Assembly (NCBI GenBank): GCA_963804645.1
Contig: CAWDRG010000015.1
Span: 384,001-448,000 of the forward strand
Length of the DNA: 64,000 bases
Source: an uncultured Bacillota bacterium
GTDB lineage: Bacteria; Sysuimicrobiota; Sysuimicrobiia; Sysuimicrobiales; Segetimicrobiaceae
Reading direction: 5' to 3'
Of the stretch, positions 3 to 7,074 are shown piece after piece. The notes under the pieces are model-generated. The model had not been told where the DNA came from. It did not search any database and saw only the letters and a list, made by a program, of their open reading frames with translations. A program made the position numbers and the translations under genes. Within the stretch, counting starts at the first letter, position 1. Each line of letters opens with the position of its first letter.

Positions 3-533
3 CGCGTCGGCAGTGCCCTCGCGCGGATCCGCCAGACCCTTCCCGTGCCGGTGCTGGGCCTGCATACTGACAACGGCAGTGAATTCCTCAATGGCGTCCT
101 GGTGCCGTGGTGTCGCGAGAAAGGCGTAGCCTTCACGCGCGGCCGGCCATATCGCAAGAACGATCAAGCGTATGTGGAGGAGCGCAATGGCCATGTGCTC
201 CGCCGTTACATCGGTTATGATCGCTTCTCGACCCAAGCGGCGTTTGCGGCGCTGCAGGCCGTCCATGCGCGGCTTCGGCTCTACGTGAATTTCTTCCAGC
301 CCATGCGCAAGCTCATCTCCAAGGAGCGCGAGGGCGCCCGGGTGACGAAGCGCTACGACCTCGCCCAAACGCTCTACCGCCGACTCCTGGCTACCGGCAT
401 CCTCTCGCCTGACCGCACGGCCGAGCTCACCGCTCAATATCGCGGCCTCAACCCTCGGACATTACGGCGCGAACTGCAAACCTGCCTGGAAACGCTCTGG
501 AGCTTCGCCGACGAAAGGAGGCGCACGGCATGA
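3..533 (+). CDS. Integrase-core (rve) DDE transposase, ISNCY/IS481-like; 5'-partial at window edge
   Basis: The frame is open from position 3. Motifs LHTDNGSEF, FTRGRPYRKNDQAYVEERN and YVNFFQP...KRYD are typical of this transposase group. Confidence 0.85.
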   Translation, partial: RVGSALARIRQTLPVPVLGLHTDNGSEFLNGVLVPWCREKGVAFTRGRPYRKNDQAYVEERNGHVLRRYIGYDRFSTQAAFAALQAVHARLRLYVNFFQPMRKLISKEREGARVTKRYDLAQTLYRRLLATGILSPDRTAELTAQYRGLNPRTLRRELQTCLETLWSFADERRRTA

Positions 534-1158
534 GTCTCGTCAGGAGCCGACACCGACGCGCGCGGCCGCCGCGGCCGACGGCAAGACAAAGACAAGGACG
601 TTACAGACAGCCTCTGGGTGACACCCATTATGAGGGTGCGTCCAGACTAACGCGGACGCGTTCAGCGGGAGACAGCCCCGCCGAGGGAAGAGCCAGACCC
701 CTTGTAGCTCGGGCAGCGGGAAGGAGGGAAACCAACTTACCTAAAGCCTGCCGACAAAGCCCCTCGTGGAAGGGCGAGCGAGTCACCAGGCCGTAGCGTA
801 AGCGAACGCGAGGTGGCCTCGAGAATCCGAATCCGGAGCGCCGAGCCTTCCCTCAAAGGGCGAAGGCAACATGAGGACGGCATATCTGGCAGAGAGGCCG
901 TCTTCAGTCCGGCGGGGTGGTTAGCGACGGCATGGTGACAAGGACGCGTACAGCAACTGGAGAGATCCTCCCCACCCCGATGTGAAAGCATCGGAAGCTG
1001 GGTAGGCGCGATAACCGGGCAACACCCGGGAAACGCGCCGACGGTGGGAGGAAGTCGGAGGGGCTCGTACGAGCGATGAACGCGGGTAATGCCGCGGGAG
1101 CAAAGGAGCCCTGCTGTCCACAGGCCCGAGTTCGAGGGGAGGCACGGACGGCCTGACA

Positions 1159-4100
1159 ATGGCGTCCATCACGGTGCAGGACCTGAGACGAAGGCTGTAC
1201 GCCAAGGCGAAGGCTGACAGGGCTTGGCGCTTCTGGGGCCTCTACGTCCACGTTTGCAAGCTGGAGACACTCCAGGCGGCTTACATGGCGGCCAAGGCGA
1301 ATGATGGCGCGCCGGGTATCGACGGCGTCACATTCGAGGCGATCGAGACCGCCGGCGTGGAAGCGTTTCTGGCACGTTTACGGGACGAATTGGTCGGAGG
1401 AAGCTATCGCCCATTGGCAACACGGAGGCATCCGATTCCCAAGCGGGGCGGCGGAGAGCGAGTGCTCCAAATTCCCGCGATTCGGGATCGGGTGGTGCAG
1501 GGGGCGCTGAAACTCATTCTCGAGCCGATCTTCGAGGCAGACTTTCAGCCCGGTTCGTACGGATATCGCCCCAAACGCTCGGCGCATCAAGCCGTGGCCC
1601 ACGTTGCAGAGGCGATCCTACTTCGCCATACGCGGGTGATCGATCTCGACCTGCACGCGTATTTTGACCATGTCCAGCACCACATACTGCTGGCACAGGT
1701 CGCGAAACGGGTCAGTGATCCCGCGATCCTGCATTTGCTGAAGCAGATTCTTCAGGCCACGGGCCGTCAAGGGCTTCCACAAGGTGGCCCTCTCTCACCC
1801 TTGCTCTCCAATATCTATCTGACTCCAGTCGATGAGATGTTGGAGAAGGCGCGGCAAACTACACGGCGGGGAACGGTCCCGAACGTGACGTACGCGCGGT
1901 GGGCTGACGATCTGGTGGTCCTGGTGGATGCGCACCAACAGCACGATTGGCTACTACGGGCGATCAACCGGCGGATTCGGGAGGAAATCGCGAAGCTCGG
2001 TATCCAGGTCAATGAGCAGAAGAGCCGCGTGGTGGATCTTGAGCGGGGGGAAACGTTTACATTTCTCGGGTTCGACTTTCGCCGGGTGCGGAGTCATCGG
2101 GGTGTGTGGCGGCCACATCAAGTGCCCACGCGCCACAAGTGCACGGAACTCCGGCAAAGACTCCGAGAGGTCTTCCGGCAACACCGCTCCCAGCCGGTGC
2201 AGCGAGTCATCGCCGAGGTCAATCCCATCCTCGCGGGATGGCTCAATTATTGCGTGTCCAGAGGGCACGCGCGACGGAAGGAGGTGGTGTCGGGAGGTAT
2301 GAGCGCGTAGCCCGTAAGCTCGTCACCGCCAGCGGGTGAAAGTCCCGTCCAGGTAATCGCCAGGGAGCCTGGTAGCAGGCTGGCGGCGTCAGGGGGAAAC
2401 GCTTGACGCCGAAGCCCAGCGTCGGAAGCCTCACGGAGGTAGCAACCGAGCGGTCCGCAGCATTACGTGAAGTCTGCCGCGGCGTTAGACCAGCCCGAAA
2501 GGGACCAAGGGGGAGCCGAGCCCGGAATACCAGGGCGAAGGCCACGGAAGGCGTGGAGAGCCTGGAAATGCAGCGCCGAAGAACCCCCCGCCGTAAGGGG
2601 CGCGGAACGTTCGGATGGTGGTGACGGGAACTGGAGAGGCCCTCCCCGGCCCCGGGTCTGCGATCCGGGAGCAGCCAGTGCGTATAACCGCCAAACGGGA
2701 AGTCGCACTGAGCCGGGAGGGCGTCGGATGGGGCCATATTAGCGACGACCGGCGGGACAACATAACCCGCCCGAGCGAAGGGCCCCTGCTTCGTCCACGT
2801 TTGTGGGAGAGGGAGGAACTGGTGCATGGCCGTGAGGCCCAACAACACCCTCGATAAAGTTCGAGCCCTTCAACACAAACTGTACCGGACGGCCAAGCAG
2901 TCGCCGAATCGACGTTTCCACGCGCTGTATGACCGGGTCCATCGCAGGGACGTTCTCCGGCGCGCGTGGTTGGAGGTGCGCGCCAACCAGGGAGCACCGG
3001 GAATCGACGCCATCACCATCGCGGATATCGAGGCGGCCGGCGTAGAGGAGTTCCTTGACGATCTAGAGGCCAGCCTGCACGACGGGACGTACCGTCCGCA
3101 GCCGCTGCGGCGCGTCTGGATTCCCAAACCAGGCAAGCCGGACAAGCTGCGTCCACTTGGGATCGCGAACGTGCGGGACCGGGTGGTCCAGCAAGCGCTG
3201 AAGATCGTCATCGAGCCGATCTTCGAGGCGGACTTTCTGCCCTGCTCGTACGGGTTTCGGCCCCGGCGAGACGCCCATCAAGCACTGCAAGCAATGCGGG
3301 AGGCGATTCGGGCAGGAAGGACATGGGTGGTGGATGCCGACATCGAGAGTTGCTTTGACCGATTGTCGCATGGCCGCATCCTGGAGTGTCTCCGGGAGCG
3401 GATCAGCGACCGGAAGGTCTTGGAACTCATTCGGGGCATCCTGTCTGCCGGGATACTCGACAGCGGTACGCTGACGAACCCGACGGAGGGCTCTCCACAA
3501 GGTGGGCCGCTCTCGCCAGTCCTGGCTAATGTGGTCCTGCATCATTTAGACCGAGCCTGGATGACGGAGCACCAGCCGCTAGGAGTGCTCGTTCGCTACT
3601 GTGACGATCTTTGCATCTGCTGCTCAACTCGGGAAAAGGCTGAAGCCGCGAAAGCGGTTTTGGCAACCACCCTGGAAGAGTTGGGGCTGACATTGTCCGG
3701 CCCCAAGACGCAGATCGTTGGAGTCGCAAGCGGGAGTGCGGGATACGACTTTCTGGGGTTCCATCATCAGATGGTGCCCTCGCGGCGCAGACCGAGCTTT
3801 CGCTATCCGGCGTGCTGGCCGAGTGCCAAAGCCGTGCTCCGGTGCCGTTCTCGGATTCGGGAACTCACCGGGCGCAATCGTCGCCACGTCCCCACGCACA
3901 CGGTTGTGGGCGACCTCAATCGTTTTCTCGGGGGATGGCGCGAGTACTATCGGTATGGCAACTCGACTCGTTGCTTCGCCAAGTTGGACCGGTATACGGT
4001 CGAACGAATGGCGTTGCTGCTCTCCAAACGACATGGACGGAACGGGCGGGGACGCGGCATGAAGTACATCATCATGTCCGGCAACCGCCTCAGTTTGATC

Positions 4101-4527
4101 CGGTTGGTCGGAAGCGTTCGATTCGAGCGGAGCGAAAACCGTCGGTGAAGGGCGTCGGTGAGCCGGGTGACCGGAAAGGTCATGCCCGGATCGATGAGGA
4201 GGAGTTGGAAACGTGTGTCACCCAGAACGAAGGCTGGAGGCTGCACGCCACCGACGGAGGTGGACAGGCTGCACCCCTAATCGGCAGGGCGGCGCGGCGC
4301 GCCAACTCCTTACTCTACTTCGCATCGGTCACGCCAGTCGGCACTTTACATATCTGCGGTTTTGGGTCGAGAAGAAAGTGCGACGCCACTTGGCGAGGGC
4401 GGCAAAGCGGCCAGGCTTCGGCTGGAAGAGGTGGAGTAGGGAGTGGATCTATGGCACGCTCGGACTGTACGAGGATTACGGTGTCCGATATGTGCACAGG
4501 CTCCCGAAAGCGCTCTCAGCGCGATAG
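1159..4527 (+). CDS. ltrA: Group II intron reverse transcriptase/maturase of the outer intron, split by the inner intron (segments 1159-2251 and 4319-4527)
   Basis: RT motifs GAPGIDG, PAIRDRVVQ, GYRPKRS, PQGGPLSPLL and YARWADD. Removing 2252-4318 gives ...GWLNY-F-RIGHASRHF...KRWSREWIYGTLGL, a continuous domain X. Confidence 0.88.
2252..4318 (+). mobile_element. Group II intron (inner intron of the twintron)
   Basis: Starts GCGTGTCCAGA (the outer intron starts GTGCGTCCAGA). Domain V AGCCGGGTGACCGGAAAGGTCATGCCCGGAT starts at 4161. Ends ...CCTTACTCTAC at 4318. Candidate EBS1 AATA (2526-2529) pairs with the exon end TATT (2248-2251). Confidence 0.88.
2826..4148 (+). CDS. ltrA: Group II intron reverse transcriptase/maturase of the inner intron, no endonuclease domain
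   Basis: 440 aa with RFHALYDRV, GAPGID, RPLGIANVRDRVVQ, SYGFRP, PQGGPLSP, RYCDD and domain X GWREYYRYGN. No C-terminal HNH motif. Confidence 0.93.
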   Translation: MAVRPNNTLDKVRALQHKLYRTAKQSPNRRFHALYDRVHRRDVLRRAWLEVRANQGAPGIDAITIADIEAAGVEEFLDDLEASLHDGTYRPQPLRRVWIPKPGKPDKLRPLGIANVRDRVVQQALKIVIEPIFEADFLPCSYGFRPRRDAHQALQAMREAIRAGRTWVVDADIESCFDRLSHGRILECLRERISDRKVLELIRGILSAGILDSGTLTNPTEGSPQGGPLSPVLANVVLHHLDRAWMTEHQPLGVLVRYCDDLCICCSTREKAEAAKAVLATTLEELGLTLSGPKTQIVGVASGSAGYDFLGFHHQMVPSRRRPSFRYPACWPSAKAVLRCRSRIRELTGRNRRHVPTHTVVGDLNRFLGGWREYYRYGNSTRCFAKLDRYTVERMALLLSKRHGRNGRGRGMKYIIMSGNRLSLIRLVGSVRFERSENRR

Positions 4528-5042
4528 GTCCCATAACCCTTGGTGCGAAGTGGACAGGGGAGCCGGATGCGGGAGATCTGCATGTCCGGTTCGATGAGGC
4601 GGGGGGTGGAAACGGAGTCGCAAGGCCACCGCGCCACTCCTCGACCCACCCATCACCCCCTACTTCGGTGTCGAGGACTTTTGAGTCAACACGGTAAAGG
4701 CGTACCCATCACCCTTGCGCCGGTCGTGACGCTCAACAAAATCGCGCCGCCGAACAGCGCTCAAATCCTGGTCAAACTGGTTTCATACCTCGTAAAAGGG
4801 CGTTCAAGTCCCGCCACTCGAGTGGGTCCAAGAGCGCATCGCCCAACTGCAAGAGATCCTGCAGCCTTAATGCCCTAATGCGGTTTTTCCGAGTTACAGC
4901 GCGCGACGTGAAGCAACTGATGGTCGAGCAATGTCCCGGACCGGTCTCCTGCATCCATGAAGCGGACAACGATGCCTTGTCCCGTTTGTGCGGTGCGCGG
5001 CGCGGGGTACCATCGGGTTCGCTGCCCAGCGAAGGCATTCAT

Positions 5043-6263
5043 TTAGAAATAGACGACCTCGAGCTTTGGAGTCTCGTATTGTGTCATGCAGGCGGCCAGG
5101 CCCGAGGAGGGCAGGACCCCCGGCATGGTCGTCGGGTCTAGGTTCCCCCTGAGGATGAACCCATTGTCGCCGCCATCGCGGTCGTTGGCCCACGTCTGTA
5201 CGATGGAGGTGACGTCAGCCTGGACCGACGCCGTAGGGCCGAACGCGAAGGAGGCCTTCTGAGAGCCGTAGCCCCACAGATGTAGGTCTGCTGCGGTCCA
5301 CCAGGGGGCCGCAGCGGGATCGGCGTCCTTGACGCACAAGGAATCGCTGGTGCGCGTCGAGAGGCCGCTGATGCGCGCTAACTTGCCGGCCTTGAGTACC
5401 GTCGACGGACCGATGCCCATCGTCAACGTCGCCGAGAACACTCTATGTTCGGAAAGCCCCTTGAGTGGAAATGCGACGCCGATGGAGGCGTAGGCCGAGG
5501 CGTAGTTCTTCGTCGTGTGGTACGAGCCCAGCGAGCCACACTGGAGAAACGAAAATGCCTGCGTGCTCGAGTTGATCACGAAGGGGCTACCGAGTGCTCC
5601 CACTTCGCGCACCGAGCTTTGGACGGTTTGTGTCCACGGGAGGGCAGTGTTGCCCGTATCTATGCCGGCGCTGAGCCATGAAAAGTTCGACGCAAACAGG
5701 GGGCCGAACAGGTTTGTCAGGCCGGAGAGGATCTTGCTGCCCTGGATATTCAGGCCGCAGGCGTCGTCCCCCCGTTCCAGCCCCAGGCGCGTCGTCGACA
5801 GAGAGGACAACTGACTCGGCGTGAACGTCTTGACGGTCGGCGTGGAGTCGGGGCCCGCGCACCATCGGCCGCTGGGACGGGACGCGAGCGTACCAAGAGT
5901 CGCCGCAACCTCATAGCAGTGCGCTGCAAACGGTCGTTGTGACTTAGGCAGCGCCGCCCACGTGGTATAGACGGCGATGACGAGATCGTGCCGGCCACCG
6001 TCGACCCGATAGACTTTATACGTGCTGGGCACCGAGATGTCGCCCTTCCAAGCCAGCATAATCCCCCCGCCGCTGATCACACCGTCGCAGAAGCTCGGCG
6101 GAGGGACGGTACCGCACTCCTTCTTGCTCATGATTTCGTGCAAGTCGCTCGGCGCCGGAGGCGCGGTCGCAGCCGAGGCCGAGTGCGGCATGGCGGCGAC
6201 GCCAATGACGCCCACGACCACGGCGACCGCCACTCCGTAAATGTGCCCTCGAGAAGTTTTCAT
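5043..6263 (-). CDS. Secreted protein with an FN3-like N-terminal region and a DNRLRE-like C-terminal module
   Basis: Signal peptide ending in ASA/A. APPAPSDL...LAWK...YKVYR...CYEVAA pattern. C-terminal DVTSIVQTW...NGFIL...PKLEVVY. Confidence 0.6.
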   Translation of the reverse strand: MKTSRGHIYGVAVAVVVGVIGVAAMPHSASAATAPPAPSDLHEIMSKKECGTVPPPSFCDGVISGGGIMLAWKGDISVPSTYKVYRVDGGRHDLVIAVYTTWAALPKSQRPFAAHCYEVAATLGTLASRPSGRWCAGPDSTPTVKTFTPSQLSSLSTTRLGLERGDDACGLNIQGSKILSGLTNLFGPLFASNFSWLSAGIDTGNTALPWTQTVQSSVREVGALGSPFVINSSTQAFSFLQCGSLGSYHTTKNYASAYASIGVAFPLKGLSEHRVFSATLTMGIGPSTVLKAGKLARISGLSTRTSDSLCVKDADPAAAPWWTAADLHLWGYGSQKASFAFGPTASVQADVTSIVQTWANDRDGGDNGFILRGNLDPTTMPGVLPSSGLAACMTQYETPKLEVVYF

Positions 6264-6340: not shown

Positions 6341-7074
6341 CCGGAATTTCCATGATCTGTGTCTGGACACCCTTTGTTGAAGAAGTCCATCTGACTTTTC
6401 GGGGACGCGTGTGACCGACGGCCCCATGAAAGGGGGTTCGGGCCCGTCCGAACCCTCCCGGGCATGGTCGCGCTGGCAAGGGCTTCATAGAGCTCCGGCT
6501 TGGCAAAGCCGGCATCGGCCCGGACGACTGCATCCTTGCCCTGCCGCCGTGGCGGGGCGTCCGCGGGGTCCACCTTCGCGATCAACTCCCGATTGATCGC
6601 GGCCAGCCCGGCGAGATTCTCATCTTGGGTCAGCAGCACGTCAGGGCGGCCAGCGCTCCCAGAGCTGCTCCGAGCCAATCAGCCGGAAGGTCGGATCCTG
6701 GGAGAGACGTTCAGCATCATTCACGTCCTCGTACCCTGCTAATCGACGGTCGACGGATTGCCGGACCAGGTCGGCGAGCGAGAACTGGGTGTTCGGGCCC
6801 CGCGGATCGGTCAAATGGCGTACGATGAGGGCACTGAAGCCCAACCGCTCGTCCAGGTCGCGCACGAGGATCAGGTCCCCATCGGAGGTGACCCGGGGTC
6901 CCTGGAACTCGACCTTCAACATGGGGTTGAACGAGAGCTGGAAGGGCTGGCTTTGGGCTTTACCCATCGGGTACGCACCCCCCCAGCATCTTCAGTGCGC
7001 GCAAACCCGCATCCGAAAAAGGCATTCGACGCGACCCCGAGGTTCTCCGTGCGCAGTCAAATCAGAAATCTAGG
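6341..7074 (-). mobile_element. IS1380-family element, internally deleted, with a frameshifted transposase remnant (6967 to ~6480)
   Basis: Transposase N-terminus VTSDG.LIL...RQ...AGYED.ND..L..DP plus an isolated VVRADAGF fragment. Imperfect inverted ends CCGGAATTTC / CCTAGATTTC. CTAA flanks both sides (6337-6340 and 7075-7078). Confidence 0.8.

Follow-up and report, generated by a model that had tools for sequence, protein, structure and literature searches.

A group II intron nested in the maturase domain of another intron's reverse transcriptase gene, from a lineage that usually homes to G-W-x-x-Y codons

Is the short reverse transcriptase (RT) frame in this stretch of DNA a truncated gene, or one gene split by a second intron, and if split, what brought the second intron to that site? 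The stretch (hereafter the window) is 64,000 nt from an uncultured Bacillota bacterium (assembly GCA_963804645.1, contig CAWDRG010000015.1, positions 384,001 to 448,000), and its list of open reading frames (ORFs) gives a 383-aa ORF at 1159-2310 and a 440-aa ORF at 2826-4148. An earlier note on the same sequence had proposed a twintron, one group II intron inside another. We find that an inner group II intron interrupts the RT/maturase gene that an outer group II intron carries in its domain IV, one base past the G-W-L-N-Y codons of the thumb/X domain, and that the lineage of the inner intron usually homes to G-W-x-x-Y in the RT genes of many group II introns. We hold it to be highly probable that this is a live-looking twintron whose inner intron, a member of that G-W-x-x-Y-homing lineage, recognizes its target by base pairing and splices before the outer maturase can be made.

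Nesting and splice boundaries

An Rfam scan, repeated over the whole window, found group II intron parts on the + strand in two sets, one nested inside the other (Table 1; gathering scores are 49 bits for RF02003 and 40 bits for RF00029). When folded, each intron shows a D5 hairpin and, as the seventh base from its 3′ end, a bulged A. The protein profiles show the same interruption. On the 5′ piece of the outer RT gene, TIGR04416 (cut-off 300 bits) scores 331.6 bits over profile positions 2-324 of 353, and Pfam gives RVT_1 plus GIIM positions 3-38 of 80 only. The inner RT scores 381.4 bits with TIGR04416 over positions 2-353 of 353, and has RVT_1 and GIIM positions 3-75 of 80. No endonuclease domain was detected in the 440-aa inner RT (Pfam reports RVT_1 and GIIM only), which ends soon after domain X. 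PDB relatives include the GsI-IIC RT (E = 9e-56), a match that does not settle the intron class in the Zimmerly scheme (A-F, CL, ML).

The break in the outer gene reads AAT TAT T/GCGTG...CTCTAC/TT CGC ATC GGT, with slashes at the junctions. When 2251 is joined to 4319 by script, the product has 433 aa, and its alignment with all 11 uninterrupted homologues (433-436 aa, 55-94% identical) shows no gap at the joint. The joint codon is F in every one of them, and 40-62 of the 69 residues of the 3′ exon are identical to their C-termini. Since the outer profile matches stop at TIGR04416 position 324 and GIIM position 38 and the 433-aa product is gap-free, the 383-aa ORF consists of 364 real codons and 19 read into the inner intron. 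In an uninterrupted outer-type intron from a genome of the same family (G014), the homologous site reads AAC TAT TTC CGG ATC GG (...AACTATTTCCGGATCGG).

The inner boundaries were fixed independently, by comparing three copies in this genome and one in a sister species (genome G004). One of the three is a stand-alone inner intron, also on this contig (C15:457082-459152). Identity with this copy starts at G2252 and stops at C4318 or T4319; we place the intron at 2252-4318 because only that extent preserves the reading frame. The outer 3′ end, given here as 4650, could be 4649, as relatives end CCTCGACCCTAC and the window copy ends CCTCGACCCACC.

Nested Rfam hits, ORFs, truncated domain matches and the spliced product all bear out the earlier note, which had placed one intron in the maturase (X) domain of another intron's RT gene, had claimed that excision of 2252-4318 restores the frame and domain X, and had called the 383-aa RT falsely truncated. 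The search with group II domain models that it proposed returned two nested sets of D1-D4 and D5/D6.

Table 1. Features of the nested introns and the adjacent gene fragment, in window coordinates
Feature	Position	Strand	Details
Outer group II intron	636-4650	+	4015 nt counting the inner intron; starts GUGCG, ends ...GACCCACC; Rfam and second genome copy
Outer ribozyme D1-D4	663-801	+	RF02003, 101.5 bits, E=2e-22
Outer RT/maturase gene, 5′ exon	1159-2251	+	364 codons and base 1 of codon 365; ends ...G W L N Y + T
Outer RT/maturase gene, 3′ exon	4319-4527	+	last two bases of codon 365 (F), 68 more domain X codons, stop TAG 4525-4527
Outer D5 and D6	4558-4650	+	RF00029, 41.1 bits; fold; bulged A4644, seventh base from 3′ end
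Inner group II intron	2252-4318	+	2067 nt; starts GCGUG, ends CUUACUCUAC; Rfam and copy comparison
Inner ribozyme D1-D4	2330-2465	+	RF02003, 102.9 bits, E=9e-23
Inner RT/maturase gene	2826-4148	+	440 aa, intact
Inner D5 and long D6	4158-4318	+	RF00029, 38.8 bits; D5 hairpin in fold; bulged A4312, seventh from 3′ end
Outer intron-binding site 1 (IBS1), UGAGG	631-635	+	final 5 bases of the outer 5′ exon
Outer exon-binding site 1 (EBS1), CCUCA	851-855	+	hairpin loop
Inner IBS1, UAUU	2248-2251	+	final four bases ahead of the insertion point
Inner EBS1, AAUA	2526-2529	+	in hairpin loop GCCC-GGAAUACCA-GGGC
Transposase gene fragment (integrase core, rve)	3-533	+	about 100 nt upstream of the outer intron; Pfam rve E=3e-4

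A homing site in RT genes and its recognition

As an unbiased test of the spread proposed in the earlier note, a metagenome collection was probed with bases 1-22 of the inner intron only. This 22-nt probe retrieved 41 contigs, with introns 69-97% identical to the inner intron of the window, and 36 of them have a readable flank, defined as at least 16 upstream bases. Of these 36 flanks, 27 end in-frame with G-W-x-x-Y, and the 27 represent 20 different contexts of 11 residues (LNQFLGGWAAY, INPIVRGWMHY and LSRTLRGWGGY, for example). Host reading frames of at least 190 aa could be followed in 17 contigs; 16 match TIGR04416, i.e. are group II RTs, and in 15 of these 16 the best match ends at position 324, the same as in the window. 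The host RTs are only 25-68% identical to one another and to the outer RT of the window, and one host has a different ribozyme type (RF02001/RF01998). Where both junctions are present, the joined exons continue the RT domain-X frame in 13 of 15 contigs, as in GWMHY[Y]GRFYRS and GWINY[F]RYGVSKATF.

The same site appears outside this set. The two nearest relatives in the genome collection (RT 73% and 70% identical; Actinobacteria and Acidimicrobiaceae assemblies) follow ...TGWAEY and ...RGWGNY, and two contigs from peat RNA libraries have the same junction in further RT genes (LNPVLRGWAAY and NSFLGGWAAY). The lineage is widespread in soil and peat. Its exact 5′ end was found in 2 of 94 genomes of the small host phylum, both of one genus; the lineage thus crosses phyla. 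In two more distant relatives examined, at about 51% RT identity and on Streptomyces and Rhodococcus plasmids, no RT gene is annotated adjacent to the intron. A regular expression for the 5′ end located it in 5 of 80 genome-collection relatives, too few to bound the specialized clade, and a tblastn screen for a second RT missed L041 and L042, which shows it to be insensitive where little of a host is left.

Target choice can be followed at the level of base pairs. The inner EBS1 of the window pairs with its IBS1 by four Watson-Crick pairs of four. In an alignment of 29 members (the window and 28 metagenome contigs) the pairing is fully Watson-Crick in 23, and loop and exon change together: AGUA:UACU in 19 rows, AAUA:UAUU in two and UGUG:CACA in two. 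This covariation of EBS1 with the final four exon bases (TAYT) points to base pairing as the means of recognition. Because these bases encode a motif that the maturase keeps, hosts can alter them only synonymously, and EBS1 follows such a synonymous change: AAUA goes with UAUU in the window, and AGUA with UACU in a sister species (genome G004). GGUGGU at 2617-2622, once taken as the inner EBS1, was dropped, as it does not covary with the exon in the family alignment, whereas loop 2526-2529 does.

The outer intron shows the same kind of pairing. Its EBS1 is complementary at five of five bases to the end of its 5′ exon, and the loop covaries with the exon in the outer-type introns of two other genomes (UAAU with AUUA in G014, GAUUA with UGAUC in G041), which confirms the outer 5′ splice site.

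Some of the evidence goes against so specific a homing site. Nine of the 36 readable flanks lack G-W-x-x-Y, and these are of three kinds. Some are degenerate; the flank of this genome's stand-alone copy recurs in one contig (L121), with the 3′ exon LRRGNSTRHF. A second set ends IWNDY or TWNDY, with RT-like 3′ exons in two contigs (L131 and L140). The third is a 70%-identical sub-lineage whose 5′ exons end CACA (L155, L148 and L138), with an EBS1 of UGUG in two of the three. The host of L155 is an IS256-family transposase gene, the sole non-RT among the 17 long host frames, so that this looks like a case of retargeting from RT genes to a transposase gene. The pairing identified so far covers four bases only, and no EBS2 was identified: the candidates GAGCC and GCCAGU do not covary with the variable x-x codons.

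Taken together, unbiased retrieval from metagenomes (the 41 contigs being the further insertion sites that the earlier note suggested looking for) and EBS1-IBS1 covariation strongly support its idea that the inner intron spreads by targeting a conserved motif of RT genes. A broader proposal would place the inner intron in a bacterial clade that is widespread and undescribed, made up of RT-encoding group II introns parasitic on others of group II. By nature they would home to the G-W-x-x-Y(Y/F) codons in the maturase thumb of hosts of any class; synthesis of the host maturase would be conditional on splicing of the parasite, and EBS1 would co-evolve with the synonymous codons of the host, the only escape route the host has. 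We give this broad form an even chance of being right.

Other nested arrangements came up in these searches. An Actinomycetota assembly carries an RT-in-RT twintron of a different lineage (L097:1387-5499), whose inner RT is 53% identical and whose intron starts GUGCG directly after ...GLDFLG, in the conserved motif-7 region of the host RT, so that a different RT motif is targeted. Three loci (L049, L044 and L067) have further nested or abutting group II introns of mixed types (RF02003 with RF02005, RF02001 or RF01998); in L067 an intron of the outer type, with an RT 66% identical to the outer RT of the window, begins about 55 nt past the stop codon of the other intron's RT. In an Acidimicrobiaceae assembly, pieces of two different RT genes lie in one frame upstream of an inner-type intron (L042:1650-2910), the first with an intact HGWVNYYGRFY region and the second running from the FLG motif to GWGNY. 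This looks like a stack of decayed host introns.

Copies, selection and alternative explanations

A second twintron lies in the same genome (C5:192656-196671, minus strand), 94.6% identical over 4078 nt to the one in the window; we call the window copy A and this one B. The inner copies inside the genome are 95.7-97.8% identical. A third composite occurs in G004, from a different species of this genus, where the inner intron interrupts the outer RT gene in the same codon (AACTACT/GCGTG...CTCTAC/TCCGC); it is about 90% identical to the window copy overall, 92-94% in the inner and 84-85% in the outer intron. Uninterrupted outer-type introns, which the earlier note had suggested seeking, are present in G014 and G041, and an uninterrupted 433-aa protein (P0001) is 94% identical to both outer copies; no uninterrupted outer-type copy was found in this genome.

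Synonymous divergence between A and B is alike for the outer (0.19) and the inner (0.17) genes, which fits copying of the composite as a unit and, on the simplest reading, continued selection on both genes since then. The flanks that A and B share are less alike than the element, with 20 of 22 bases identical upstream (window 614-635) and 32 of 40 downstream (4651-4690); this fits homing into two diverged copies of a target, and not a segmental duplication. The 62-nt shared flank resembles a repeated target element. No empty target of the outer intron was found in the genome itself with three flank patterns at up to 2 mismatches.

The stand-alone inner copy, just outside the window, was compared with the nested copies (window 2252-4318 and C5:192988-195054) at the 90 sites where those two differ. 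It is a mosaic whose blocks follow A or B in turn (14 sites like A, then 12 like B, then 7 like A, for example), with 2 private substitutions and one 4-nt insertion of its own. This suggests recombination or gene conversion among intron copies. In this genome the composite has probably been copied as a single unit, and the inner intron probably also moves or recombines alone.

Selection bears on whether the split gene is still used. Between A and B the outer RT has 54.8 synonymous and 28.2 non-synonymous differences, a ratio of non-synonymous to synonymous rates (dN/dS) of 0.156 (binomial P = 4e-15 against neutrality). For the 69 codons past the inner intron dN/dS is 0.31 (7 against 7 differences, P = 0.03). 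Both genome copies retain an intact 433-codon outer frame once the inner intron is removed, and the inner RT frame is open in all four copies, with dN/dS of 0.07-0.15. Purifying selection on the split outer RT means that it is probably still made, and the inner intron must then splice first.

The inner intron has reverse-spliced into the outer RT gene, and for expression the following order of events is proposed. Transcription of the outer intron would give an RNA from which the inner RT can be translated unspliced; this RT would help the inner intron to splice out, rejoining the outer reading frame, and only then would the outer maturase (433 aa) be produced, to act on its own intron. By gene structure the outer maturase can be made only after inner splicing. 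The ordered two-step dependency of the earlier note therefore holds for the outer protein, given the gene structure, the intact frames in both copies and the dN/dS of 0.156; it is less sure for the outer RNA, for whose splicing a maturase acting in trans might suffice.

Findings that weaken the case for a living, ordered twintron should be set beside this. The inner D5/D6 match of 38.8 bits is under the RF00029 gathering score. Group II introns usually begin GUGYG and end AY, and the GCGUG start of the inner intron (which ends AC) and the CC end of the outer (which starts GUGCG) depart from this. Among outer-type relatives in G014 (L023) and G041 (L024), one starts GCGCG and the other GCGUG, and several members end CC, so such variants are shared within the lineage. 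If A and B were invaded separately, part of the selection on the outer RT could be older than the insertions, and the uninterrupted P0001 is equidistant from both. The outer intron of G004 is 5′-truncated and frameshifted, so hosts can simply decay. The mosaic makes a simple tree invalid and blurs the dating of the inner against the outer insertion. Neither spliced joint (2251/4319 or 635/4651) was found among the contigs of three peat metatranscriptome runs and one peat DNA run, nor did any listed contig bridge 2251/2252 with the flank of the window copy; contigs cannot show absence.

Joints that were listed in these RNA and DNA contigs are treated as cross-matches, since their sides are short (20-38 bases) and they connect regions that are homologous between the two introns. 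One RNA contig (X9, record 28) has its first base exactly at 2252; it was rejected as evidence of an excised intron, because assembly graphs break where flanks differ. Two 151-nt peat metatranscriptome contigs match the outer domain I (window 725-1019) without differences, which hints that the window's outer intron is transcribed, with DNA carry-over in the library also possible. In G004 (L022, on contig C18) the outer intron breaks off near RT codon 211 and contains a frameshifted stretch, and the inner RT frame is open; to judge from these frames the guest intron has outlived its host there.

The locus itself is intergenic and sits amid mobile-element debris. The rve fragment upstream matches the NCBIfam IS3 and IS481 models partially, under their cut-offs. 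Downstream lie a protein of 406 aa that begins with a hydrophobic N-terminal stretch and matches nothing in Pfam (5043-6263, minus strand) and a DDE_Tnp_1_4 transposase fragment (6644-6967, minus strand).

One alternative is a fossil pile-up, in which the nesting is real but both introns are dead relics, neither splices and the outer RT is never made. The transposase fragments on either side (3-533 and 6644-6967), the truncated and frameshifted outer intron of G004, the lack of a spliced joint in contigs of the four peat runs and the non-canonical termini would all agree with it. We think it very unlikely, as both RT frames are intact in both copies under the low dN/dS values given above, D5, the branch A and the EBS1-IBS1 pairing are kept in both introns, and the inner EBS1 fits the window copy's own synonymous exon variant; the RNA-library contigs identical to outer D1 (725-1019) also speak against it, subject to the same DNA carry-over. 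That two separate introns were misjoined in metagenome assembly has a chance close to nil. The genome does look metagenome-derived (22 contigs, 96.8% complete, 4.2% contamination), introns are repeats, and among the listed contigs of DNA run X1 none bridges 2251/2252. Against a chimera, both junctions recur in a diverged copy on another contig (94.6%) and in another species (90%), where synonymous exon differences come with a matching change of EBS1; the excision is base-exact and restores a 433-aa protein; and dozens of metagenome contigs carry the same kind of junction in other RT genes.

A further alternative accepts a living twintron and denies the order: the outer intron would splice with the inner one still present, helped in trans by the inner RT or another maturase, and the split outer RT would be dispensable. 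The loop of domain IV lies outside the group II catalytic core, so an inner intron placed there forms no part of that core. The two introns match the same Rfam D1-D4 model, and their RTs are 37% identical. In Thermosynechococcus (T.) elongatus one intron protein splices and mobilizes several introns, parts of twintrons included (PMC2882425). We regard this alternative as rather unlikely, since the outer RT is under purifying selection throughout, also in the 69 codons whose translation needs inner splicing first, and the genome has no uninterrupted outer-type gene to supply the protein.

Significance and relation to known systems

In this locus one selfish retroelement lives on another, a clean example from nature. 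Its target is a protein motif that the host cannot give up, which makes the pair suitable for studying how parasite and host co-evolve at single base pairs, EBS1 against synonymous codons, and it offers a testable two-step expression switch in which the outer maturase is absent until the inner intron is spliced. There is also a practical side. Gene callers report split RT genes as truncated proteins (383 aa here against a true 433) and intron surveys are known to drop nested introns (PMC4028801 and PMC8919778), so such lineages are under-counted. Homing to another RT motif, RYADD, has been known since 2008, which limits the surprise: this is not a new principle, and its interest is moderate and specialist, though it is well suited to experiment.

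Twintrons are established in Euglena plastids, T. elongatus, Methanosarcina (M.) acetivorans and Trichodesmium (PMC4424553, PMC2882425, PMC4649490). The earlier note was right that nested introns were already known, and it understated how near the published precedent is: in 2008 Tourasse and Kolsto described introns that home to RYADD, a motif in the RT ORFs of other introns (PMC2504315, section 13). These are M.a.I5 (M. acetivorans), UA.I3, P.l.I2 (Photorhabdus luminescens) and B.th.I3 (Bacillus thuringiensis). Like the inner intron here, they encode an RT without an endonuclease domain, are site-specific for a conserved motif of RT ORFs and make twintrons, and conservation of their target is confined to the 5′-exon bases that pair with the intron (PMC2504315). 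They differ in the target. Theirs is the catalytic RYADD (AGGTATGCTGATGACT; PMC2504315), whereas the lineage described here uses the G-W-x-x-Y codons of the thumb/X region, about 100 codons further on, at TIGR04416 position 324 of 353 and thus not at RYADD. The 2008 group is characterized by 58-67% nucleotide identity over the whole intron length. The hosts of the present lineage also span very diverse RTs (25-68% identical), unlike the RYADD-homing case. In the literature searched, with most subscription journals and all supplements outside its scope, we found no description of homing into GWxxY/domain X codons.

The nested introns of M. acetivorans share with this locus repeated site-specific homing into group II introns, and flanking exons that hold no host gene (PMC4424553). 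They are archaeal, reach five nested levels and show recombination deletions; the window has two levels, both RTs intact and a composite that is apparently conserved. T. elongatus, with TeI3 inside TeI4, offers a bacterial inner intron at one conserved site of an outer ORF, able to spread with the composite or separately (Mohr, Ghanem and Lambowitz 2010, PMC2882425). That inner intron has no ORF, and its position, after the first ATG and ahead of the second, leaves the latter available for making the outer protein. The inner intron of the window has a 440-aa RT and sits at codon 365 of 433, where it splits the maturase domain and makes a functional outer protein impossible without splicing. 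The inner copies in T. elongatus are identical and the outer ones diverged (PMC2882425), whereas inner and outer genes here have similar synonymous divergence.

The Trichodesmium erythraeum twintron is bacterial too and of similar size (5400 nt; Pfreundt and Hess 2015, PMC4649490). It interrupts a gene for a conserved host protein and its stepwise splicing was shown experimentally, whereas the twintron here is intergenic and its sequential splicing is proposed from sequence. There are also the mat1f twintrons of Porphyridium (PMC4476101) and the euglenophyte 'a maturase inside a maturase' (10.1101/2021.09.24.461685), in which different outer introns carry a nested RT/maturase intron, always at one and the same site in domain IV. 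Those are plastid cases with outer proteins that are truncated remnants, and the available text describes no family-wide targeting of one protein motif. Such behaviour has been published before; the present case differs in its motif, in its wide range of hosts and in a composite that seems to be conserved.

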